From contig JACOYC010000012.1 in assembly GCA_016182015.1 (NCBI GenBank), forward strand, positions 29,623 through 93,622: a stretch of DNA of 64,000 nucleotides, written 5' to 3'. This DNA is from Nanobdellati archaeon. Lineage in GTDB: Archaea; Nanobdellota; Nanobdellia; UBA10117. A model generated the notes under the pieces. It saw only the letters and a list, made by a program, of their open reading frames with translations, was not told the DNA's origin and searched no databases. Below are positions 46,940-59,989 of this stretch, piece after piece. The stretch's first letter is position 1, and the number at the start of each line of letters is the position of its first letter. Position numbers and translations under genes: made by a program.

Positions 46940-49105
46940 TTGCTAAACCCAATTCATCCGAGAAACAGGAGGCAGAGGAATTTAGAGCGCTTGCAGGCAT
47001 ACGTATCAGGTGCGCTTGCCAGCGGAGTTTCAAAAGGCCGGCTGAAGAAAAGGCTGCTCCAGAGCGGGTGGGGAAGTGATGTTGTTTCAGGCGTTTTGCC
47101 GGATACAAAGCCGAGCTTGCCTGCGGTTATTGCCTTGATAGGGCTTGTCGTATTTTTTACAGGGTTAGCAGTATTTGCCGGCGGGCCAAAACTAACTGGG
47201 TTTTTTGCAGCCGGCGGGAGCGAGTGGGAAGCGCTAACAGAAATTAATGTAAATTCCAGTGTTCAGTCAGTACAGCATCTCGTAGTTTTTGGCAATTTCA
47301 AGCCGCAAAATTGCGCGGATGGCATACTTGTCCAAACTAGCGGCGCACCGATAAATTTCACAACGCAGTTTGAAACCGTGCAGAATAGCCAGTGCGTGAG
47401 CGCTGTAGCGAGTTTTAATAATATAATTTATGATCCAGATTCTAACGGAACGTTACAAGCAACATATAAAATTTATTACGGCAAAATTGTGCAGACTGTG
47501 ACATTTATTCCGCCTACGCCGGAAAATTATCAGATAGTAAATGGCAGCGCCTTTGCAGTCCGCGTGGCGCTAAGCCTGCCAGCAGTCGCGTGGCTCGAGC
47601 TTGATGGCGTAAATAAATCTATGACTGGCAATGGTACTGTGTGGTGGTCTGAGGAGAATCAGACCTTTGGCAACCATACGTTTATGGCACATACACAGCT
47701 TGCCAGCTCTGAGCAAAGGAGCATAACCACGCAGGCATCTGCTCCGGTTCCGGTTCAAGTGCAGTCACCCCCGCCAATTATTAATATAACTCTGGTTACG
47801 CCCACGCCGGCAAACCAATCTACACTGACAAAAAAAGAATTTACAGCTAATGTAACTTTCTCAGATATAGTTTACGGGCCAATGCTAGAACTAATATCTA
47901 ACAGGACCGGTGTGCCACAGTACCAGAATCTTTCGATGACTGGCGGCAATAAATCATGGATGCGCGATGTTACAAACCTGAACAACGGAGTTTATGAATT
48001 TGCAATTTATGCAAATAACACAAAAAGCGAGCCGCGTACAGTCACTGTAAATTATCAGGAGCCGCTGGCACAGCAGACCAAAAGTGCGACAATAACACAG
48101 TTCTCCGCAACAAGCCCAGAGTCGGCAGAGTCAGAAGTCCAGATAACTGCGGTCGTGAAAAATTCCGGGCAGGCAGAGATAAAAACAGTTTCAGGGACAG
48201 CAAGCATTTACAAGGGGACAGAACTTATGGCGGAGGTTTCCCTTGGCTCAGCAGGCAATATAACAATCGGAAATTCAGCGACACTGGCTGGAAAATGGAA
48301 GCCGCAGACCCTTGGAAAATACAAAGCAACTGTTGTTATAAAGTATGATAACGAGGAAGCCAAAGAAGCAGCTTCATTCAGCGTTGGCCTGGCCAATTTG
48401 GAAGCCGCACGGACATCAGTGTTCCAGACGCCCGACGGCAAGGCGGAATTTTTGGTAGAGTTAAACAATAAATGGGTTGAAGCGATACCCGTAGTCGCAG
48501 AATTCAAGATTAAATTTGGAGGCGCGGTAATCGAGACACTGAAATCAGAAGAAATTTCTGTGCCGCCTAACGGCGCCAAGGCAGCGTCTGTTGTCTGGGA
48601 CCCGGCTGGCAGGGATGTCAAGTCGCTTGGCGCAGAAATAACAGTAACATATTCTGGCAAGTCTATTACTGCAGTTATTGAGCCGGCAGCAAAGCCGCCT
48701 GCTGTCCAGCAAGAGGTCAAAGCTGAGGCAGAACAAGGACAGAAGCAGCAGGAGGAGTTAAAAGCAAACAGCGAACAGGAAAAAGCAACTTCCGGCCTGA
48801 CTGGCGCGTTCACCGCGATTAAAGCAGCAGACAAGAAGACTGCGGCGGTTGCGATTGCAGTGATTGCCGGCCTGTTTGGGGCGATTTTTTACGCAGTCAG
48901 GATGGATTTACTGCCTCAACTTGGAAAGCCAAAGAAACCAGCAGGGCCATGGCAGCAAGCTGCAAAGACTGGTGGCCAGCAGGCCGCTGCACAGCCGGGC
49001 AGCAAGGCTGCGTTATACAAGCAGTGGCACGATTATTACGAAGCCTATTACAAAAAATATTACCCGCAGTGGTACGAATATTTAAAGAGGAGCGGGAAGT
49101 TATAA
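46940..49105 (+). CDS. Large cell-surface protein with N- and C-terminal TM anchors and Tyr-rich cytoplasmic tail
   Basis: 721 aa; TM near aa 60 and near the C-terminus; beta-rich repeats (CARDB/Ig-like); tail KQWHDYYEAYYKKYYPQWYEY. Confidence 0.5.
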   Translation: MLNPIHPRNRRQRNLERLQAYVSGALASGVSKGRLKKRLLQSGWGSDVVSGVLPDTKPSLPAVIALIGLVVFFTGLAVFAGGPKLTGFFAAGGSEWEALTEINVNSSVQSVQHLVVFGNFKPQNCADGILVQTSGAPINFTTQFETVQNSQCVSAVASFNNIIYDPDSNGTLQATYKIYYGKIVQTVTFIPPTPENYQIVNGSAFAVRVALSLPAVAWLELDGVNKSMTGNGTVWWSEENQTFGNHTFMAHTQLASSEQRSITTQASAPVPVQVQSPPPIINITLVTPTPANQSTLTKKEFTANVTFSDIVYGPMLELISNRTGVPQYQNLSMTGGNKSWMRDVTNLNNGVYEFAIYANNTKSEPRTVTVNYQEPLAQQTKSATITQFSATSPESAESEVQITAVVKNSGQAEIKTVSGTASIYKGTELMAEVSLGSAGNITIGNSATLAGKWKPQTLGKYKATVVIKYDNEEAKEAASFSVGLANLEAARTSVFQTPDGKAEFLVELNNKWVEAIPVVAEFKIKFGGAVIETLKSEEISVPPNGAKAASVVWDPAGRDVKSLGAEITVTYSGKSITAVIEPAAKPPAVQQEVKAEAEQGQKQQEELKANSEQEKATSGLTGAFTAIKAADKKTAAVAIAVIAGLFGAIFYAVRMDLLPQLGKPKKPAGPWQQAAKTGGQQAAAQPGSKAALYKQWHDYYEAYYKKYYPQWYEYLKRSGKL

Positions 49106-49110
49106 TATTA

Positions 49111-50439
49111 CTAAATTAAACCGAGTTGTTTAAGTTCTCCGCGGATTGCCGTAGGATCTTCCCCGCCATGCCAGCTGTACTTTGGCCTGACTTGCATCGG
49201 GTAGATTTTTTCCAGCTTGTCGTCTATCAGGACTGCTGAGCCTTTGTCTGCAGGCAAGTCGTCTATGTAGCGCTGGATGTCAAAAGTAAGATAGGTGGCT
49301 GCAATTTCGTTTAACGCTGATAAGTCTATTTTTGAAGTGACTTTATGTGAGAGCACGATGTCGGCCTGCGTCATCACGTCAGTGTGAATTTTGCCAGGCT
49401 GCTGAGTTGCAAGCACGAGTGAGATTCCGGGTTGCCTGCCTTCGCGCAAAATCTGAATCAGCGCGTTAGACGCCAGGGTTTTTCCGGTTCGCGGTAGGAA
49501 TTCATGCGCTTCATCAATCATCATCCATACAAGCGGCGCTTCCTTTTCAGCGATTACAGATTTTTCTCCAAACAAAAAACCACCCTCGGAAATCAGTTTT
49601 ACTTCCTCTGCCTTTCGTGCGGCCATGCGCTGCGCGAGGATTTTCTTGCTGACTAAACCAATTACAAGCGCCTTCAGCCGCTCGCCATTTTCAACCTGCG
49701 CGTATGCCGAAAGGTCGAGAATTGTTGTTGTGCCGCTTTTTAACAAATCTAAAATTTCTGTGCCAGCCGCTTTGAATATACCCCAGCCGTCTGCGGCTAA
49801 AAACTTGTTTTTTAGAATCTGCTTCTCTTTTTTTTCTGCATCTTTGTCTGTTTCTAAAACGTTAATTAGTTCGCCAATTTCGAAAGTTCCCAGGTTTTCT
49901 TTAGCCTTTGTTACCGTGCGTTCAAGTAATACGCCAGCATCAGATAATAAATCAATTCCAAAAATTTCCGCCCAGTCGTCAGCAGATATTTCTGATGGCC
50001 TGATGGCAAAAGGCAGGTCGCACGGCACGCCTTTTTCTTGGTAAGAATCGAACAGGCCAAACGGAACAAAAATCACTGGGCTCAGGCCTTTGGGAGTCAA
50101 GCCCCATTCTTTTAGGATTTTGTCGTCTTTGTAATTTGGGTATTTCATCGTCCAGAAAATCCCCATCGTGTCAAAAATCAGGAATGATAAATTATTTTTT
50201 ATTTCGTCCGGCAAATCTGCAAGGCCTTCAGCAATTACGGAAATTGTGTAGCTTTTTCCTGTCCCGCGCTTGCCGCTTACTAATATAATATGCGGGCCAG
50301 CCACATCAAGATAAACGGGATTTGACAGCGCCTGAATCCGCTCCATCTGCACATAGTGCTTGCCAAGGAAGATTGTTCCTGCTAAACCTAAACGTTCTTT
50401 CTCCTTCGGGGACCTGCCCGCGATTATTTCGTATGCCAT
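49111..50439 (-). CDS. HerA/FtsK-like P-loop ATPase (DUF87/COG0433)
   Basis: Walker A GKRGTGKSYT, Walker B MMIDEAHEF; 442 aa. Confidence 0.7.
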   Translation of the reverse strand: MAYEIIAGRSPKEKERLGLAGTIFLGKHYVQMERIQALSNPVYLDVAGPHIILVSGKRGTGKSYTISVIAEGLADLPDEIKNNLSFLIFDTMGIFWTMKYPNYKDDKILKEWGLTPKGLSPVIFVPFGLFDSYQEKGVPCDLPFAIRPSEISADDWAEIFGIDLLSDAGVLLERTVTKAKENLGTFEIGELINVLETDKDAEKKEKQILKNKFLAADGWGIFKAAGTEILDLLKSGTTTILDLSAYAQVENGERLKALVIGLVSKKILAQRMAARKAEEVKLISEGGFLFGEKSVIAEKEAPLVWMMIDEAHEFLPRTGKTLASNALIQILREGRQPGISLVLATQQPGKIHTDVMTQADIVLSHKVTSKIDLSALNEIAATYLTFDIQRYIDDLPADKGSAVLIDDKLEKIYPMQVRPKYSWHGGEDPTAIRGELKQLGLI

Positions 50440-50535: not shown

Positions 50536-50719
50536 GCCGACGTCGCTTAACCCGGTATAGCGCTGGTCTCGAAAACCAGTCCCGCAAGGGATTGCAGGTT
50601 CAAATCTAAGATCCAAGGGGGCGCTGCCCCCTTAGTTCTTAGTCACTTCTGATCCCCCGGTCGCATCGCTACGCGATGCAACTAAGGATTAGCAGTGAAG
50701 GAAAATCCTGCCGTCGGCG
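50536..50719 (+). tRNA. tRNA-Ser (anticodon CGA) with about 101-nt intron at non-canonical T-loop position 60/61
   Basis: Acceptor GCCGACG/CGTCGGC, discriminator G, D-arm GCT-TAACCCGGTAT-AGC, anticodon stem CTGGT/ACCAG with loop CTCGAAA, long variable arm TCCCGCAAGGGA, T-stem GCAGG and T-loop TTCAAAT, then an insert before CCTGC. Confidence 0.75.
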
Positions 50720-50814
50720 CTCAATTTTTTCATAATATAGAAATAAGGATTTTTTGATTTCAACCACAAACTATTTAAATGCCCGCAAGTATGTTTAACT
50801 TGAGGTAAATTAAA

Positions 50815-51285
50815 ATGGCCGCATGGTTAAGTGAAAAATCAGTAACAGTGTTAGCTGTATTAGTCGCCCTGGTAGCTGTAGGAGCACCTTTGCTTACAGG
50901 GAATACGGGAAGGTTGGCAATAGCTACGGGTACCAGTTCTCTGCCATTTGACTTTTCTGTAACAAATGTAAATGTGCCTGAGCCACAGTACTCGTATTAC
51001 CCTGTCAGGGGCATTACTGCTACTTTCAGGAATACCGGGCCAATAAGCTTTGGCTTTGTAAATTACAAGATGGAAATATCCAGTTCCAAGGGCCATTATT
51101 ACAGAGACGGTGTTGGAACTGTCACGCTGCCTGCCCGCGGTTCGGCGTCAGCAGAGATGCCAGCGGTGCATGACTTGCCAGCCGGCGAGTATAATGTCAA
51201 GGTCACAATAGATTACCTTGGCGAGCACAGCGAGACAGATGAATCAAATAACGCGTTCACAACAAAGCTCGTGATAAAAGGCTGA
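50815..51285 (+). CDS. Secreted single-domain CARDB-like beta-sandwich protein (paralog family)
   Basis: Signal peptide; C-terminal motif EHSETDESNNAF shared across the family. Confidence 0.6.
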   Translation: MAAWLSEKSVTVLAVLVALVAVGAPLLTGNTGRLAIATGTSSLPFDFSVTNVNVPEPQYSYYPVRGITATFRNTGPISFGFVNYKMEISSSKGHYYRDGVGTVTLPARGSASAEMPAVHDLPAGEYNVKVTIDYLGEHSETDESNNAFTTKLVIKG

Positions 51286-51354
51286 TTTTTTCCATTTTTT
51301 GTTTTTTTAAGTCCGATAGAAAGCCCCAGATAGTTTTATAAACAAGTATTTCAA

Positions 51355-51828
51355 GTGCTGAATGTAATGGCCACATACGAGAAATATATTGCAGCCTTAG
51401 CGGCAGTATTTTTGCTGGCCAACATCAGCCATAATTTTTTGGCCGCAGGCAGCGCAACAGTAAAAACGCCGGTTGATTTTTCTATTCAGGCGTTGTATTA
51501 CCCGAAAATAATGCTGCCGAACACGCATATCACTACGAGGGCAATTTTATCTAACAAGGGCACGCAGTCCGCTTCTTTTGTAACGTATGATTACCGTATT
51601 TTTGACGAGCGCGGCGCGGAAGTATACAGGAGTTCCGATGGGTCATACATACAGGTTTTGCCGGCGAGCACGGAGGTTTCAAGATATCTGAGCACGGTGA
51701 TGTTTCAGAAGGCTGGCAAGTACAGAGTTCGCGTGACTATTGATTCTGAAAAGCGGTTTGATGAGACAGATGAGACTAATAATATATATGAAACAACAAT
51801 AACAGTTACAGATTCTTTGCCGAAGTGA
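51355..51828 (+). CDS. Secreted CARDB-like protein (paralog)
   Basis: MATYEKYIAALAAVFLL...; FDETDETNNIYETTITV. Confidence 0.6.
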   Translation: MLNVMATYEKYIAALAAVFLLANISHNFLAAGSATVKTPVDFSIQALYYPKIMLPNTHITTRAILSNKGTQSASFVTYDYRIFDERGAEVYRSSDGSYIQVLPASTEVSRYLSTVMFQKAGKYRVRVTIDSEKRFDETDETNNIYETTITVTDSLPK

Positions 51829-54800
51829 TAGAAATGGAAAAACATAAAAAAACCAAAATAGCCGCTTTGTTTCTGATAGTTCCGATAATTTTCCTCTGGC
51901 CGCTGTCCATTGCAACGTTACAAGAGTCAGATCTATCTTTTTTTGCGAAGGGCAAGGATGATTCTGGTGTAGGTTCATCCTCGTCCGGGTCCTCTGGACC
52001 GTCAGCACCATCTTCCCCAGCCATAGCTTCTGAGCCATCAGCACCGGCCTCGCCGTTAGAATCAGCATCTTCTGATACCAGTGAGGCAGAAAGCAGTTCC
52101 GCATCCTCGGGGCAGGCAGAATCTTCAGGCGGGAAGGCAGGCAAGGAAAAATCAGAATCTGGCGGTGAAGCGCAGTTAACACCTTCCGAGGAAAAAACAG
52201 AAGCCAAGGAAGAAAAAGTTAAAGAGGAAAAAGTAAAAGAGACCAAGGAAGAATCAGCAGAAGCAAAGGAGGAGAAAAAATCCGAAGCGCGCGAGAGCGC
52301 AGTCATGGGGCCGGCCGCAAATGAAATTGCAACTGTCAACGAAGTTGCTGCCGAAGTTGTGGCGACAGACCCCGGTGTTACACCTGACTCTCCAGTTTAC
52401 AAATTAGAAATAGCTGCAGAACAGATACAGGACTCTGCAGTGAATAATCCTGAAAAGAAGGCGGAAGTAGCCGCCGAACGCGCAGAGGAGCGGCTGGCCG
52501 AAGCAAAAGCAGTTGAGGAAAAAGGAGACTACAAATCAACAGGGGTTGCGCTGGAAAAAGCGCAGGAGAGCGTAGAGGCAATCTCGCGGGCCGTGGATGC
52601 AGTTCCAAAGAGCGAGGAAAAAATTGAGGCTGCAAATAAAATAGAAAAACACGCGCTTCAGCTCGAGGACTATGCTGAGAGCGTAAAAGATAAGCTAGAG
52701 GAAAAAGTAAAATCCGGCGATGCGCCGCCCGAAGCGGTTGATGCTTTGGACAGTGTAAAAGAGCTTGAGGCCGCAGCAGTCGAGGCGCAATACAGAGCCG
52801 AAAAAACAAAAGATAAAATTGCAGACAAAATAAGGGAAGAGCAGGGCGTTACAAAACAGGAGGCAGAGCTGATCGTCGAGCAGAAATCCGATGAGTCCGG
52901 GCTTACAGAACTGCAAAAGGAAAAAGTTGCGGATGATTTTGAAAAAATCCGCGAGAAAATAGAAAAACTTGACGAGCGCGCGGGCGCAGTTGAGGAAGCC
53001 AAAAATGAGAAGCCTGCCGAAAAAACAAAGGAAGCGATTTCTGATAATTTTGATGATTTGAAAACTGTGCTGAAGGATACAAAAGACTCGCTGAAGGATG
53101 TTGCTGAGGAGCGCATCCCTGAAATCGAGCAGCAGTTTGCGGAAATAGATTCGAAAGTAAAGAGTGCTGAGGAAAAGAGCAGCAAGGATGCTGGCGAGAA
53201 GCCTGCTGAAGAGGTTAGCGCTCAGCTGGCCAGCGATTTCTCCGAGATGAAAAATAAAGTTGGCATAGCAGAGGAAGAAATAACAAAAGCTGCAGATGCA
53301 GAAATTTCAGTGCAGTTTGGCGAAGTTAACGATAAAATAGAAAAAGCAGAAAAGAAGGCGAAAGAGACTGCAGAGGAAGATGAGAAGGCGCAGATAGAGC
53401 AACAGTTTTCAAAATTAAAAGACGAAGTCGATAAAGCCGAGAAAAAAATCAAAGGTAAAGAAACGGCCCTGCAGGAAGAAGCAGCGATAGCTGTTGAAAC
53501 AAATTTTAATGAGATTAACAATAAAATTGAGACTGTAGAGGCCAACGTTGAAGAAATAAAATCTGCAGACGCTGAGGTTGCATCTGAATTTGCAGGCCTT
53601 AAAGACGCGGTTGAGCAGGCCGAAGGTGCAGTTGCTGAAGCGGCCAAGCCGGAAGACAGGGGCAAGGTTGCATCTGAATTTGAAAAAATAAAAAAAGAAG
53701 TTGAAGATGCCGAGAAAAAAACTGGCGAGGCAGCCGGAGAAAAAACATCTGAGGAAATAAAATCTGAAATCGCAAAAGAGTTCGATGATGTAAGCAAAAA
53801 GATAGATGAAGCAGAGCACAGCATAAAAGCGGCCAAGTCGGCATAAAAGCGGCCAAGCCGGCAACGGCTGAAATTGCAAAGGAATTTGACGAGCTGAAAG
53901 GCAAGGCTGATAAGGCTGAGGAAAAAGTAAAAACCGAGAAAGCGGCAGACGTAGAGCTTAAAAAAGAATTCGAAGAGCTGGTGATAAAGTCATCAGAAGC
54001 TGAAGAAAAAATAAATGAAAAAAAATTAGAAAAGGCGGAAATTAAAAATAATTTTGATAAAGCTAAGGATGAAATAATTAATATTGAACGCAGTGTCCAG
54101 GCTGAACTTGTACCGGAAACTGTGGCTGTGCCGGAGGTTCCGGATGTTGTTGCTGACCTAATCGAGGAAGCAAAAACGCAGCTGCAGGTATCAGAAAGTG
54201 CTTTTGAAACCAAGCAGGCAGGCAAGGCCTACAAAGAGCTCAAGGGCGCAGAATTTATGGCAAACAGCGCAGAAAAAGTTTTGGATTCGTTGTCCGGTGA
54301 TTTTGAAATAAAGGAAAAAGCAGAGAAGATAGAAAAGTCCGCGGAGAAAGCCGACAGGGATGCGGAAAAAGAGGTGAAGGAGCGCGTTGATGATATAAAA
54401 GAGAAACTTAGCAAGGCCGAGGAAAAGGCGGTAGAAGTGGCAGAGCCGAAAGACAAGGCAGACCTAGCCAAGGAATTTAAAGAAACAAGGGACAGGCTTG
54501 ACGGAGCCGAGAAAAAAATCAAAGATGATGTCCGCAACAAGCCGGCCGAAGAGGCTGGCCCAGAAGTCGCGGCCGAGCTTGCAGATGTAAAAGATAAAAT
54601 TGACAAAGTGGAAGAAAAAGCCAGAGAAAAAATCAAAGGCAAGGAAATTGATGACGTAGTGCAGGAGCTGGCCAGCGCAAAAGACAAGGCAGACAAGGCG
54701 GAAGACAAGATAATAGAAAAGGCGGCCAGAGCTGAAGAAAATAAGGACAAGGTTGACAAGGCGTTTAAAGAAATTGAGACGCCGCTGTCTGTGACTGACG

Positions 54801-56476
54801 TTTTGAACGAGCTTAGCAAGGTAAAAAGAGACGCTGACGAAGACAAGGCCAAGAGAATAAAAGACGCAGAGGATTTTTCAGTTGATTATGAAGCTGCAAA
54901 GGAAAAGCTGGACAAAGAACATCCGGGCAAAAAAGATGCCTTTGAGAAAGAGTACGCGCAGTCCAAGAAAGTCCTTGAGATAAATGAGAAGCTTGATGCG
55001 GATAATGCAAAAGAACTGAAGGAGCTGCGGGAAGACCTGAAGGCAGAGACAAAGGACGAAGCAAAAGCAGAGAAAGAGGCAGAAAAGCTGCTTAAGAAAA
55101 GCGCTGCAGATGAGTTCCGCAAGGCATACGGCGAAGAGTTTTTGCCGCCAGGCATCAGCCTGAAACACGAGGGCGACAAGGAAAATGGCAAGCTGGATGA
55201 AAAGTTCGAAGCAAAAGAGGCAGGCCATGTTAAAGGGTACAAATACAAGGATGATGCTGCTACCGGCTATGAATATGAGTTTACTTCTGACGGATATAAA
55301 TTCAAGACGCCGCGCGGCAATGAATATGAAGTGAAGTACGACTCGGATTTTGTGCCGCCAGATGGATATGAAACCGGAAATGAAATGCATAAGTTCAAAG
55401 CCAAAACCCTGAAGGGCAAGGCAGAATATATATTTGTGCCGACTGGATACAAGGTAAAAACAAAAAGCAAGGAAAAGGCAGGCGCCTACGATGTTGGTGA
55501 ATATGAAGTGAACGGCGGCGGCAAGATAAAAATAAGGCCGACTGGTTACTCACTTGAGAAAGACGGAAAAGTGAAAGCAGAAAAAGAGAAGGCAGTAAAG
55601 GAAAAGAAGGAGAAAGTAAAGAGCGAGAAGAAAGAGAAAGATGAGAAAGCGAAGGAGGAGCGCGTAGCAAAGGAGAAGAAAATTAAACTAGAGAAGGAAG
55701 CCAAAATTAAGGCGGTAAAAGAAAAATCAGAAACTGCAAAAGAAAAGAAAGAGCGCGAAGTGAAGGAGAAAAAAGTAAAAGGAGAAAATGAAAAGAGGGA
55801 TAAGAAGCTAAAAGAGGAAAAAATAAAGAAAGAGAAGGAAGATAAAGACAAGAAAGAAAAAGAAGTGAAAGAAAAGAAGGCCAAGAAAGAAAAAGAAGAA
55901 AAAAAGGTGAAGGAAGAAAAGATAGTCAAGTACAAATATAATCCAAAATCAAAGAAATATGTTTCGGCAGGCGGGCGCGTGTTTGTGCCGCCGCAGGGGG
56001 CAAGCCTGCATGAGCAAGCCAAGTACCTGCCAGATAAAAACGTATATGAACTTAAGGTAAACGGCGATGTTTGGACTTACGATCCTGTTACAGATGCATG
56101 GACATCGAAAAGCGGCGAGGCTGATCAGGACGTTACGCCGGCGATTTTAGTTGATTTCGGAGTTGACGATGTTAGCAGGCCGGGCGTGACTTCGCCGCAG
56201 GCCGCGACAGCTTCTGTTAAGAACATTGGCACTGCCACAGCTACAGCAGTACATTACAAGTACGAAATAGTCGCAGCTAACGGCGCAGTAAAGTATTCAA
56301 CAACCGGCGATATAACTGCGGTGCCATCTGACAGCTCAGTGCTTGTAAGGACTGCAACAGATTCTGGACTAAGCCCCGGGGCATACAAGCTTAAGTTCAC
56401 AGTGGACTCTGACGGCAAGTTTGACGAAGGCGACGAAAACGATAACGTCTTTGAGAAGGAGCTGATTGTGGCCTAA
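51825..56476 (+). pseudogene. Giant E/K-rich coiled-coil surface protein (about 1540 aa if repaired) with C-terminal CARDB-like domain; interrupted by 20-bp tandem duplication at 53822-53861
   Basis: ORFs 51825-53846 and 53981-56476 are in different frames. Removing one 20-nt repeat copy restores a continuous frame with matching repeat style (EIAKEFDELKGKADKAEEKV). N-terminal TM, S/P/A-rich linker, then EK repeats, and the tail ends FDEGDENDNVFEKELIVA. Confidence 0.7.
53822..53861. repeat. 20-bp tandem direct duplication cataaaagcggccaag(t/c)cgg x2
   Basis: Two adjacent copies with one mismatch; 20 nt is not a multiple of 3, so the duplication shifts the frame. Confidence 0.85.
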
Positions 56477-56512: not shown

Positions 56513-56930
56513 TTGAAAATGGCCACATACGAAAAAATATCGGCAGTGCTGGCAATATTTTTAGTAATAGGAATTGCCGGCTACTCATTTTACGGCAACT
56601 CAACGCAGGGCGCGGCCGCAGCAGGCTATTACGAGTTTTCCATCAAAAGTCTTGACTTCCCGGAGAAGATAACTAAGGATAATCCGTTCAAGGCGAACGC
56701 GACCTTTGTGAATTCCGGCACGCTGACCGCCTCGTTTGTTGCATACGACTATGAAATTTTTGATTCCCGCGGGGCGTATGCATACCGCAGCAGAATTGCA
56801 GAAGCTGCAGCCAGCAGTCTACTTAACAAATGGCACTTACTTTGTCAGGCTGACATTAGATTCAGAAAATCATTTTAGCGAGGATAATAAATCAGATAAT
56901 AAAATTGTGACAAACATACGAGTATACTAG
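56513..56930 (+). pseudogene. CARDB-like paralog disrupted by frameshift/deletion
   Basis: N-terminus MKMATYEKISAVLAIFLVIGIAG matches the family; the C-terminal family motif (TYFVRLTLDSENHFSEDNKSDN) lies in another frame (ORF 56736-56930). Confidence 0.65.
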
Positions 56931-56950
56931 GAGTATACTGGCAGTATACT
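56921..56950. promoter_or_regulatory. Three copies of palindromic AGTATACT at 11-bp phasing
   Basis: Copies at 56921, 56932 and 56943. Confidence 0.4.
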
Positions 56951-57071
56951 TGAGATGATACGAATTGTTTAGCTGTGCGCTTTCTAAAGAGTAAAAAGCT
57001 TTTTAAATAACACAATTCATGTTAAACATAACGCGGAACAAGTTCCGCGGATTTGCTCACGGAGTTCGCAA

Positions 57072-57515
57072 ATGGCCACAAATGAAGGTTTAGTTACAAT
57101 TATAGCCGTGCTTGCAGTCCTTGTGTCTGTCGGGCTTGGTTCTGTTTCTGAAGGCGTGTCGGGGAGCGCGGTTGCAGATATTTCAGAGCTCTCTGTTAAA
57201 TCTATTTCTATTCAGCCGCAGGCATATGCCGGCCAGACGATACGCGGGACAGCAATTTTTTCCAACACCGGAGGTTTGAGCGCGAGCTTTGTCCAATACA
57301 AATACGAATGGATAAATGAATATGGGAATGCACTTTTTACAACAAGCGATAAACTCGCGTTGATTGCAGGCCGCGATACCGATGTTACTCTGAAGGATGT
57401 TGAAGGCCTGCCGGCAGGCAAGTATGCAGTCCGCATCACAGTTGACCATCTGAAGGAATTTTCTGAACTTGATGAAACTAATAATGTTTATGAAACAAGT
57501 GTGACGGTATTATGA
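57072..57515 (+). CDS. Secreted CARDB-like protein (paralog)
   Basis: Signal peptide; FSELDETNNVYETSVTVL. Confidence 0.6.
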   Translation: MATNEGLVTIIAVLAVLVSVGLGSVSEGVSGSAVADISELSVKSISIQPQAYAGQTIRGTAIFSNTGGLSASFVQYKYEWINEYGNALFTTSDKLALIAGRDTDVTLKDVEGLPAGKYAVRITVDHLKEFSELDETNNVYETSVTVL

Positions 57516-57949
57516 AACAGGCAACAATTGCATGGATCGCGATAGCTGTTTTCCTTGGCGCGTTTGGCGGGCCATTGCTGACCGGCCAGCACAGCGCCAG
57601 CACAGCAGTAAGCCCGCTTGACTTTTCGGTTAAATCCGTAACTTACTCAGACACAAAGGCAGGCCTGCCGTTTACAGCAACAATTGTTTTTTCAAACTCA
57701 GGTTCGATAAGCGCGAGCTATGCAAAATATAATTATGAAGTCTTTGGCGAATTTGGAAATTTGTTTTACTCAAATACTGATTATGTGCAAGTCCTGCCAG
57801 TCGGCGGGGACGCAACAGTAACAACGCCAGCTTATGTTACGATGCCAGCAGGCAAGTACACAGTTCGCGTAACGATAGACAGCGACAAAAATTTTGACGA
57901 ACTGGATGAGACAAATAATAAGTGGGAAGAAAGCTTGGTGATTAAATAG
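57512..57949 (+). CDS. Secreted CARDB-like protein (paralog)
   Basis: Signal peptide; FDELDETNNKWEESLVIK; 4-nt overlap with the upstream gene. Confidence 0.6.
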   Translation: MKQATIAWIAIAVFLGAFGGPLLTGQHSASTAVSPLDFSVKSVTYSDTKAGLPFTATIVFSNSGSISASYAKYNYEVFGEFGNLFYSNTDYVQVLPVGGDATVTTPAYVTMPAGKYTVRVTIDSDKNFDELDETNNKWEESLVIK

Positions 57950-58033
57950 GCCTTTAGTTTTTTATTTAGTTTTTTTGGCACGTTAGTATGTAACCGCAAG
58001 CTATATAAATAGTCTTTTACATATAAATATAAA

Positions 58034-58474
58034 ATGGCCACACATGTCGATAGTAAAGCTTTAGCAGGAATAGCCGTATTTATCGCGCTTGCAGCGTTTG
58101 CCAGCCCATATTTGACTGGTAATGTAGCAGCAACAGTTGACAATCTGGATTTGGTTGCTTCTGATGTGACTGTGCCAGCCAGAATACTGGCCAGCGTTGA
58201 GTTCCAGCCGACATTCAAAGTCAGTAATGTGGGCACTGCCGGCATAAGCTCGACAATTTACAAATACGAAATCCTGCGTGGCACGCAACTTTTTACGAGT
58301 TCGACAGAAACATTTACTATAATTGGCGGCCGAGAGCAAATAGTGGAACTGCCGAGGAATATATACCTGCCAGCAGGCACGTACACGCTCAGAGTAACCG
58401 TTGACCCGTACAACTATTATGCTGAAGTAAGCGAGGCTAATAATGTCGCACAGACTGAGTTTACAGTTGTTTAA
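58034..58474 (+). CDS. Secreted CARDB-like protein (paralog)
   Basis: Signal peptide; AEVSEANNVAQTEFTVV. Confidence 0.6.
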   Translation: MATHVDSKALAGIAVFIALAAFASPYLTGNVAATVDNLDLVASDVTVPARILASVEFQPTFKVSNVGTAGISSTIYKYEILRGTQLFTSSTETFTIIGGREQIVELPRNIYLPAGTYTLRVTVDPYNYYAEVSEANNVAQTEFTVV

Positions 58475-58475
58475 A

Positions 58476-59231
58476 ATGACAAATGTAAAAGCCCTAGCGA
58501 TAATAGTTTCGCTGCTGGTTTTTACAATTGCTGTTGCGCCGAATATAACTGGTTTTGTCACTGCAGTCGATTCTGGCGGATGCAGGGGCGTGCCAACTTT
58601 GACATTAGATCCCAACCCAGTGCAGGCCGGCAAGATAGCAACTGCCAGGGTGTCTGGCCTGATGGACTGCAATGGCAAGACTGTTGATTTGAAGCTGGAC
58701 AGCTGCTTTGGTGCAAAGCTTGGCTCGTTCAGATGCGTTGATAAATTTTGCACTTCCACTTTTCCGGTAAAACTTAGCGCGCCAAAGGACTATTTGATTG
58801 CAGCCTGCATTGACAAGAACGGCAACGGATATTTGTATGATGCAGGCGAACGCGCAGCATCGCTTTTCAAGGTGCGCTCGATGCCGGATGTTTATGTAAA
58901 CAAGATTTCATTCCTGCCAGCAGACCCGAGGAGGGGCCAGCAGGTTATTCCAGTAATCAGCGTCGGAAACCGCGGCTCAGCTTCCGCATATTTCTTTAAC
59001 CTGCGCGTGACCCTTTCCCAAAAGGACAGCAATAACAGGGATGCAACAATTACCTCGTGGGAAAACAATGTTCAGGTTGATGCGAACAGCGTGAAGGACT
59101 TCAGGGCGCCAGGCTACTCTTTGAGTCCGGGCGATTATAAGGTTACGGTAGAGCTGGACAGGCTGGACTACATAGTTGAGCTGAACGAGCGCGATAATAA
59201 TGCAAATGCCAAGCTGAAGGTTTATCCATAA
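58476..59231 (+). CDS. Secreted two-domain protein with C-terminal CARDB-like domain
   Basis: MTNVKALAIIVSLLVF signal peptide; Cys-containing N-domain; C-terminal VELNERDNNANAKLKVYP. Confidence 0.55.
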   Translation: MTNVKALAIIVSLLVFTIAVAPNITGFVTAVDSGGCRGVPTLTLDPNPVQAGKIATARVSGLMDCNGKTVDLKLDSCFGAKLGSFRCVDKFCTSTFPVKLSAPKDYLIAACIDKNGNGYLYDAGERAASLFKVRSMPDVYVNKISFLPADPRRGQQVIPVISVGNRGSASAYFFNLRVTLSQKDSNNRDATITSWENNVQVDANSVKDFRAPGYSLSPGDYKVTVELDRLDYIVELNERDNNANAKLKVYP

Positions 59232-59620: not shown

Positions 59621-59989
59621 TTATTCGGCCTCAATAAGCTTGATTTTCAGAAATTTCTCTAGCTTCCTTGCCAGCCCCAAATCCAAGCGCTTGCCTTGTT
59701 CTGCAGCTTGAATGACTGGCAGTTTTTCGCTTAATCTGTTCGCGAGTTCTTCCTGCTTTAAACCCATTTGCTGCCTTGCCGAGGAAATTATTTTTCCGAA
59801 ATTTTCGGTTACTGTTTCGCCGGATTCCGGCGCAATGTATTGCAGGACTGGCTGCCTTGCCGCAGGCCTTGGCTGTTCGATAATCTTGCCCGTGGAAGAA
59901 CAGGGAGCGCAGACATTTAGAGCTACGCTGTCAACACTTGCTTTCACGGTTGCGCGGGCAGAGCCGCAGATTTCGCAATCAATGGGCAT
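59621..59989 (-). CDS. MBF1-like transcription factor (N-terminal Zn-ribbon plus C-terminal XRE-type HTH)
   Basis: CEICG...CAPC zinc ribbon; HTH region ARQQMGLKQEELANRLSEK. Confidence 0.7.
   Translation of the reverse strand: MPIDCEICGSARATVKASVDSVALNVCAPCSSTGKIIEQPRPAARQPVLQYIAPESGETVTENFGKIISSARQQMGLKQEELANRLSEKLPVIQAAEQGKRLDLGLARKLEKFLKIKLIEAE

Follow-up and report, generated by a model that had tools for sequence, protein, structure and literature searches.

A 20-nt tandem duplication splitting a giant candidate surface-protein gene of a Mamarchaeota archaeon is probably an assembly artefact

Two adjacent open reading frames (ORFs) in a DPANN (Mamarchaeota) genome, ORF1 (673 aa, 51825..53846, + strand) and ORF2 (831 aa from a GTG start, 53981..56476, + strand), form the N-terminal 44% and the carboxyl-terminal 56% of one ~1540-aa gene, a conclusion firmly supported by sequence comparison. 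In the deposited sequence, this gene is broken by a 20-nt tandem duplication, which we consider to be probably an artefact of scaffold joining and likely absent from the organism. All positions given here refer to the window, i.e., the whole 64,000-nt stretch of DNA that was analysed.

Two open reading frames are halves of one gene

A search with ORF2 using phmmer retrieved single-chain homologues of 750–1150 aa, in which residues ~43-255 align to ORF1 residues 184-397 (residues 43-255 in the case of P0013, E = 8e-22), while residues ~310-640 align to ORF2 residues 270-525 and 653-714. The DUF5667 domain is shared by ORF1 and the N-terminus of these homologues. As single polypeptides match ORF1 N-terminally and ORF2 C-terminally, the two are best regarded as one gene, as the initial annotation had proposed. 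In addition, an uninterrupted orthologue of 1532 aa is present in a sister MAG of that study (contig JACQKZ010000006.1) and is 89.7% identical over its full length. Its gene contains the 20-nt unit, with the C allele, only once, as CATAAAAGCTGACAAGCCGG; two other positions are substituted, and a repeat tract is absent.

Comparison with this orthologue gave a dN/dS of 0.144 in the region of ORF1 and of 0.117 in that of ORF2. No further stops or frameshifts were found across the 4.6 kb of the gene. The deposited sequence thus has the frame-disrupting lesion of a recent pseudogene when set against intact orthologues, but neither relaxed constraint nor additional disabling mutations. An old pseudogene is excluded by the dN/dS of 0.12–0.14 on both halves.

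Architecture and genomic context of the joined protein

ORF1 comprises a signal peptide or transmembrane segment, a linker rich in Ser, Pro, Ala, and Glu, a DUF5667 domain, and the first of a series of helical repeats of ~30 aa. In the N-terminal segment (51825..51917, + strand), which the initial annotation had also pointed out, a Lys-rich start is followed by the hydrophobic stretch MEKHKKTKIAALFLIVPIIFLWPLSIA, and a Sec-type signal peptide or N-terminal anchor is predicted. It was called by eye from the sequence, and the homologues begin with comparable signal peptides. DUF5667 (PF18915; 52374..52685, + strand), with the motif GVTPDSPVY, is supported by both a Pfam match and the homologue alignment. 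It scored 31.6 bits against a gathering cut-off of 27 over ORF1 residues 184-287 once the low-complexity N-terminus was trimmed, whereas a Pfam search with the untrimmed 673-aa ORF1 gave no DUF5667 match. Degenerate helical repeats of ~28–34 aa, following the pattern h-x3-F-x2-h-K-x2-h-x2-A-E, extend from 53124 to 54724 (+ strand), with a spacing that is unbroken over the break.

The remainder of the protein is encoded by ORF2, which was deposited as MBI2040955.1 (HYT16_02525). A family-defining domain rich in beta-hairpins (AYGEEFLPPG ... TGYEYEF ... PTGYKV; 55076..55570, + strand), which has no solved relative, is followed by a segment consisting only of Lys and Glu (55571..55936, + strand). 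This inserted segment is absent from the distant homologues, and probably forms a single alpha-helix that acts as a spacer. A second conserved module (YKYNPKSKKYVSAGG ... WTYDP ... WTSKSG; 55937..56122, + strand), corresponding to ORF2 residues 653-714, matches all homologues. A CARDB domain (PF07705; 56186..56458, + strand), recognized earlier as CARDB-like, was identified at the carboxyl-terminus by Pfam above the gathering score (33.1 bits versus 22.7, E = 6.7e-08, ORF2 residues 736-826).

The order of domains would then be a signal peptide, a low-complexity linker, DUF5667, and a long alpha-helical stalk of degenerate ~30-aa repeats rich in Glu and Lys, after which the beta-hairpin domain, the Lys/Glu spacer, the second conserved module, and the carboxyl-terminal CARDB domain would follow. 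The proposal of about 1300 aa of Glu/Lys heptads needs correction: the heptads are not uniform over that length, and the protein also contains DUF5667, the beta-rich domain, and the pure Lys/Glu segment. These features suggest that the ~1540-aa product is a secreted or surface protein, in which a fibrous extracellular part may keep an adhesion-type CARDB domain at a distance from the cell surface. Apart from the question of the break, the gene encodes a mildly interesting, uncharacterised putative surface protein of DPANN archaea, in which DUF5667 is combined with a very long helical stalk, a beta domain, and CARDB. In the literature collection that was searched, no paper mentions DUF5667.

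The gene lies in a same-strand cluster of CARDB proteins. Upstream (50815..51828, + strand) are the genes for two small CARDB proteins that both have a hydrophobic N-terminus, and four CARDB proteins are encoded downstream (57072..59231, + strand). Between these lies a small CARDB paralogue, HYT16_02530 (56513..56930, + strand), which is broken in the window by a 41-nt deletion at 56802/56803 (junction word TTGCAGAAGCTGCAGCC).

A 20-nt tandem duplication breaks the reading frame

The break coincides with two adjacent copies of a 20-nt unit at 53822-53861 (+ strand), which differ at one T/C position. Copy 1, CATAAAAGCGGCCAAGTCGG (53822-53841), carries the T allele (codon TCG, Ser), and copy 2, CATAAAAGCGGCCAAGCCGG (53842-53861), carries the C allele (CCG, Pro) and contains a premature TAA. 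The two copies meet in the junction word AAGTCGGCATAAAAGCGG, whereas the single-copy form of the site reads GCACAGCATAAAAGCGGCCAAG[C/T]CGGCAACGG, with the single-copy word CACAGCATAAAAGCGGCCAAGCCGGCAACGG or its counterpart that has T at the variable site. The length of the unit is not a multiple of 3, and the stop of ORF1 (TAA, 53844-53846) falls 5 nt into copy 2. The frame of ORF2 is open from 53810, i.e., 37 nt before the ORF1 stop.

Removal of either copy yields a single ORF of 1543 aa, confirming the earlier observation that deletion of one copy joins the frames. The two repaired versions differ at residue 672 only (Pro or Ser). The motif spacing of ~30 aa is kept over the repaired junction, with IAKEFDDVSKKIDEAE at residue 649 and IAKEFDELKGKADKAE at residue 677, in agreement with the claim that the joined protein continues in the same repeat style.

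The 20-nt unit, with up to 3 mismatches allowed, matches the window only at its two copies, against a chance expectation of 0.04, and at least 2 matches were seen in 0 of 100 shuffles. Tandem Repeats Finder (TRF) ranked the duplication as the top short-period repeat of the window (score 79, 2.2 copies, 95% identity). The window is otherwise poor in repeats, and pervasive tandem repeats like those of Borgs were rejected. The unit is flanked by a 3-nt microhomology (GCA...GCA), which was already present in the ancestral single-copy sequence.

Independent contigs end at the duplication

Logan contigs (k = 31), which represent an independent assembly of the same strain, match the window with 100% identity over about 14 kb. 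None of these contigs crosses the junction between copy 1 and copy 2. Rather, contig L001 ends at 53842 with the T allele (...GCCAAGTCGGC), and contig L003 begins at 53852, within copy 2, with the C allele (GCCAAGCCGGC...). No 21-, 30-, or 31-mer of the break region is repeated, so that a clonal duplication would leave the assembly graph unbroken.

A second anomaly of the same style was found in an intergenic region, where a tandem duplication of 12 nt, with copies that differ at one base (CTTTAGTTTTTT / ATTTAGTTTTTT; 57952..57975, no strand assigned), has the junction word TTAGTTTTTTATTTAGTTTT at 57963/4. Contig L003 terminates at 57963, the exact boundary between these copies. The tandem repeats at 52212, 56917, and 57584 are spanned by Logan contigs and are thereby confirmed in reads. 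Over the ~14 kb, the MAG and the Logan contigs are separated by zero substitutions but two or three indel-type events. One of these is the 41-nt deletion: L003 contains the 41 nt that are absent from the window, which restores an intact paralogue of 150 aa, and the corresponding proteins of the sister MAG are 149–151 aa long.

A scaffold join is the preferred explanation

In the source study, reads were assembled with MEGAHIT and the contigs were then joined with the IDBA-UD scaffolder. Besides the sister genome, that study has only one Mamarchaeota MAG, whose name, _45_10, denotes a GC content of 45% and a coverage of ~10x; the window most likely belongs to this MAG, and SRR12113430, from project PRJNA640378, appears to be its read set. 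With this assignment, the sequence would come from low-coverage contigs that had undergone paired-end scaffolding. The window contains no N. Background to a join of this kind is the handling of negative gaps by the IDBA-UD scaffolder.

We propose that two contigs with ends overlapping by about 20 nt would have been joined, with the overlap kept twice. The contig ends would carry different alleles (T and C) of one polymorphic site, and the paired-end scaffolder would have connected them in an assembly with ~10x coverage. The single mismatch between the copies had been taken as an argument against an assembly artefact. This argument does not stand, as a mismatch fits the join of a left end carrying T and a right end carrying C. 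For a real, young duplication, on the other hand, the mismatch is improbable, because a mismatch within 40 nt together with a lack of nonsense mutations over 4.6 kb has a joint probability of no more than about 0.055, even in the best case. On this reading, the paralogue HYT16_02530 would probably have been truncated by a similar error.

Several observations count against an artefact. The duplicated sequence, too, is matched at 100% by both Logan contigs. A blind join of contigs would give a 3-nt microhomology by chance in about 1 in 64 cases, whereas duplications arising by slippage typically have one. Furthermore, the 41-nt deletion falls inside a Logan contig and not at its end; it may thus represent real variation in the population, which would make genuine indels in the cluster more plausible. 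Finally, none of the simple de Bruijn graph models with two or three alleles reproduced both contig ends exactly.

If the duplication is an artefact, MBI2040955.1 and its upstream neighbour are truncated GenBank entries that should properly be one protein of ~1540 aa. Where a gene in a low-coverage, scaffolded MAG is broken by a short, near-perfect tandem duplication, the reads should be consulted before the break is given a biological reading.

Alternative explanations

The main alternative to a scaffold join is a very recent, real tandem duplication by replication slippage at GCA...GCA, which frameshifts the gene and is either fixed or coexists with an intact allele. We regard this as possible but clearly less likely, and only in this form does the earlier suggestion of a recent inactivating mutation survive. 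The duplication is present in the deposited sequence, the ends of both Logan contigs match it perfectly, and the borders of the unit show the microhomology. The paralogue, moreover, differs between the MAG and the same-strain Logan contig by a frame-breaking indel of 41 nt, so that indel polymorphism in the cluster is possible, and the assembly graph would likewise break at the site if broken and intact alleles were mixed. However, no contig crosses the junction, and the break is a contig end, as is the second duplication of the same style. Young copies should be identical, while an old broken gene should hold stops, given that 5.15% of substitutions are nonsense. The lack of substitutions alongside two or three indel events would be an odd spectrum for real evolution, and simulated mixtures of duplicated and single-copy alleles missed the observed contig ends.

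A genuine frameshift would leave a secreted N-terminal fragment of 673 aa, with the loss of the beta domain and the CARDB end, and would represent ordinary pseudogenisation or loss-of-function variation in a surface protein of a symbiont with a small genome. Coexistence of a real duplication with an intact allele in the groundwater population, taken by itself, seems rather improbable. If true, it would imply, together with the 41-nt deletion in the paralogue, that an episymbiotic DPANN archaeon has standing on/off variation in a surface-protein cluster, for example under pressure from viruses or host recognition.

The idea of a slipped-strand on/off switch, in which the 20-nt copy number changes at high frequency to toggle the full-length surface protein, found no support, and we consider it very unlikely. 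A change in copy number does shift the frame, surface proteins are the usual targets of phase variation, and the assembly graph breaks at the site. Known contingency loci, however, consist of many copies of units of 1–9 nt, while only two imperfect copies are present here instead of many perfect copies of a short unit. No tract is maintained in the sister lineage, which has one copy with two substitutions; both halves are under strong purifying selection; and other copy numbers were absent from all contigs seen. Exact look-ups gave no match for ORF1, with either start, or for the four variants of the repaired protein, and a scan of JGI metagenomes gave 0 matches to the junction, whether with one copy or with two. 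ORF2 and the protein of the HerA-like neighbour, looked up exactly in the contig index, had no match either.

The least credible option is that the two ORFs are separate functional genes, or that one protein is produced by programmed -1 frameshifting in the overlap 53810-53846: ORF2 is annotated by NCBI as its own protein and its frame is open ahead of the ORF1 stop, but the homologues and the sister orthologue are all single chains, ORF2 lacks a signal peptide, and the split is due solely to the duplicated 20 nt. Programmed frameshifting was rejected, as the orthologue is fused and a slippery heptamer of the form X XXY YYZ is absent from the overlap, read by eye.

Comparison with known systems

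The giant protein resembles secreted DPANN proteins with DUF5667 in its signal peptide, its DUF5667 with a TPDSxxY motif, its helical region, its beta domain, and its YxYNPxF module, and the shared parts occur in the same order as in the 750–1150-aa homologues. It differs in having a stalk that is ~370 aa longer, owing to the ~30-aa repeats, and an extra Lys/Glu insertion of 128 aa. It ends in CARDB, whereas the homologues end in a tail rich in Ser, Thr, and Gly with a terminal YRxF motif.

Phase variation by simple sequence repeats, as exemplified by the CTCTT repeats of Neisseria opa genes and the tetranucleotide tracts of Haemophilus, likewise involves a repeat within the coding sequence for a surface protein, with the number of copies determining the frame. 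In contrast to those tracts, the unit here is 20 nt long, occurs as two imperfect copies, is not conserved as a tract in the sister lineage, and showed no variation in copy number. Slippage duplications that give rise to pseudogenes share the direct tandem copy (here of 20 nt), the GCA microhomology, the shifted frame, and the early stop; here, however, the copies differ at one base while the gene shows no other decay.

A scaffold join, our preferred explanation, has its counterpart in the local assembly errors with duplicated sequence at IDBA-UD joins that were described by the same laboratory (Chen et al. 2020, Genome Res 30:315; PMC7111523). Whereas those cases have Ns between the duplicated flanks and the 20-nt duplication does not, they have in common a short duplicated stretch where contigs meet, a broken gene, an IDBA-UD pipeline, and independent contigs that end at the same place.

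One gene divided by a 20-nt tandem duplication

Two large ORFs, ORF1 (51825-53846, plus strand, 673 aa) and ORF2 (53981-56476, plus strand, 831 aa; deposited in GenBank as MBI2040955.1, HYT16_02525), had been proposed in the initial annotation to be one gene whose frames are split by a 20-nt tandem duplication, and the duplication was confirmed. The unit, CATAAAAGCGGCCAAG(T/C)CGG, occurs as copy 1 at 53822-53841 (T allele) and copy 2 at 53842-53861 (C allele). These are its only 2 matches in the window at up to 3 mismatches (chance expectation, 0.04), and together they form the top-scoring short-period tandem repeat of the window. The premature TAA ending ORF1 sits within copy 2, and the reading frame of ORF2 is open as early as 53810. 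Removing one copy joins the frames, as had been claimed. Deletion of either gives a single ORF of 1543 aa, the two versions differing only at residue 672 (Pro or Ser), and a degenerate helical repeat of ~30 aa keeps its spacing where the junction is repaired.

When 1.84 billion representative proteins were scanned in full with ORF2 by HMMER, 55 relatives emerged. The best are single proteins of 750-1150 aa that combine a signal peptide and DUF5667 (motif TPDSxxY) at the N-terminus with a helical region and a conserved beta domain rich in Tyr and Gly. By BLASTP, the same single-chain homologues match both ORFs colinearly: ORF1 residues 184-397 align with homologue residues ~43-255 (P0013, E = 8e-22), and ORF2 residues 270-525 and 653-714 with homologue residues ~310-640. 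DUF5667 was detected in ORF1 after its low-complexity N-terminus was trimmed (31.6 bits versus a cut-off of 27). In addition, contig JACQKZ010000006.1 of the sister MAG S_p1_S3_coassembly_Mamarchaeota_44_133 encodes an uninterrupted ORF of 1532 aa that shares 89.7% identity with the repaired protein along its entire length; this genome has the site once, as CATAAAAGCTGACAAGCCGG, the C (Pro) allele. Together, the colinear homologues, DUF5667 in ORF1, and the sister ORF bear out the one-gene proposal. That the halves are instead a true split gene, or are joined by programmed frameshifting, is highly improbable.

Origin of the duplication

The site was compared with 14 Logan contigs (independent k=31 assemblies) from five sequencing runs, chosen as carrying exact copies of window genes. 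All 14 were 100% identical to the window over ~14 kb, one indel excepted, and none spanned the junction between the copies. One contig, L001, covers 50618-53842 and ends in ...GCCAAGTCGGC (T allele) at the copy boundary, a position ambiguous by 3 nt owing to a shared GCA, while another, L003, begins at 53852 with GCCAAGCCGGCAACGG (C allele). The window has no repeated 21-, 30-, or 31-mer around the site, and such a graph would therefore run unbroken through a clonal duplication. At a true graph branch, neighbouring Logan contigs overlap by 30 nt (k-1), as L015 and L007 do exactly at 59810-59839; L001 and L003 have no 30-nt overlap under either model, indicating that k-mers are missing at the break. 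Logan contigs of four different runs all begin at 59810, and 59810-59839 is a true graph branch in the population (a strain variant or repeat). Different runs also share contig ends at 50618 and 62105.

A second, intergenic duplication of 12 nt lies at 57952-57975 (CTTTAGTTTTTT followed by ATTTAGTTTTTT), and L003 ends at 57963, its exact copy boundary; a join between contigs may have created this duplication too. Each of the two duplications coinciding with contig ends carries exactly one mismatch, the pattern that would result from contigs stopping at polymorphic sites and having their allele-specific ends abutted. The tandem repeats at 52212, 56917, and 57584 are each spanned by Logan contigs and are thus real.

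The study containing the sister MAG has exactly two Mamarchaeota MAGs, sisters in its tree, the other being GD2017-2_S1_QB3_180125_Mamarchaeota_45_10, named for a GC content of 45% and ~10x coverage (He et al. 2021, PMC7906910). Contigs assembled per filter with MEGAHIT were then joined by the IDBA-UD scaffolder (PMC7906910). The same laboratory describes local assembly errors as prominent with IDBA-UD, and duplicated sequence at scaffold joins with overlapping flanks (PMC7111523). The window has a GC content of ~45%, and we infer that it derives from this second MAG. It contains no N anywhere.

In comparison with the sister orthologue, the part of the gene upstream of the break has a dN/dS of 0.144 and the downstream part one of 0.117. 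The repaired gene contains no further stop or frameshift, even though 5.15% of all single-base changes in it would make a stop; the break, if real, is therefore very young. Copies of a young duplication should be identical. One mismatch in 40 nt and no nonsense mutation in 4.6 kb have a joint probability of ~0.055 at best.

We consider a scaffold-join error the probable cause of the 20-nt duplication. Contigs would stop at polymorphic sites and the scaffolder would abut their allele-specific ends, producing a near-perfect tandem copy. Several observations point this way: two duplications coincide with independent contig ends, one end at the 20-nt unit carries T and the other C, coverage is low and a scaffolding pipeline was used, and two or three indel-type differences stand beside zero substitutions. 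The age argument adds to these. A genuine recent frameshift, fixed or polymorphic, is a weaker candidate. In its favour, GCA...GCA microhomology borders the unit and was already present in the single-copy ancestor, which a blind join would be expected to show only ~1 time in 64, and the duplicated sequence also fits both Logan contigs. Moreover, 41 nt at 56802/56803 are present in L003 and absent from the window; as this deletion is internal to a Logan contig, real indel polymorphism in the cluster is possible. The deletion borders show no microhomology. The deletion frameshifts the small CARDB paralogue HYT16_02530 (56513-56930) in the window; with the 41 nt the paralogue is intact in L003 (150 aa), and it is intact in the sister MAG (149-151 aa). 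The earlier reading of the break as biology, above all as a slipped-strand switch, is not supported, the switch being very unlikely; a scaffold-join error is the most likely cause.

Gene neighbourhood

The gene belongs to a cluster that encodes, on the same strand, small CARDB proteins whose N-termini are hydrophobic. Just upstream of the cluster (46940-50439) lie a CARDB-containing ORF of 721 aa and, in divergent orientation, an ATPase of the HerA/DUF87 type. Synteny with the sister MAG does not extend to the left flank of the cluster, as homology begins only at 50724. No such neighbours accompany the homologue from Woesearchaeota, a single ORF of 956 aa, and the cluster is accordingly lineage-specific. 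Between the orthologues of the genes at 56513 and 57072, the sister MAG encodes a 282-aa TPR-repeat protein (L005 11928-12776, minus strand). At this position (~56950-57070) the window has only ~140 nt, in which an 11-nt unit is repeated 2.8 times in tandem (56917-56950) and a GC-rich hairpin occupies 57032-57049.

Protein architecture and comparison with distant homologues

The N-terminus (KHKKTK, then a hydrophobic stretch ending in SIA) resembles a Sec-type signal peptide or an anchor. A linker of Ser, Pro, Ala, and Glu separates it from DUF5667; next come a helical stalk rich in Glu and Lys and a Lys/Glu spacer, and the chain closes with a second conserved module and CARDB. An in-frame 15-nt tandem duplication in ORF1 (52212-52241; EEKVK EEKVK) is spanned by Logan contigs, and the sister orthologue lacks 15 residues immediately before it; small in-frame indels are how this low-complexity linker evolves. 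The protein would be extracellular and fibrous, holding an adhesion-type domain away from the cell, a plausible arrangement for an episymbiont.

Compared with its distant homologues, the gene encodes ~370 extra residues of ~30-aa repeats and a 128-residue insertion of Lys and Glu only. The C-termini of P0004, P0005, P0006, and P0017 comprise a Gly/Ser-rich tail and, at the very end, a conserved motif (..YRxF or RRF) that may serve in sorting or anchoring and is absent from the window protein. Where the distant homologues end in a Ser/Thr/Gly-rich tail, it carries a C-terminal CARDB domain instead.
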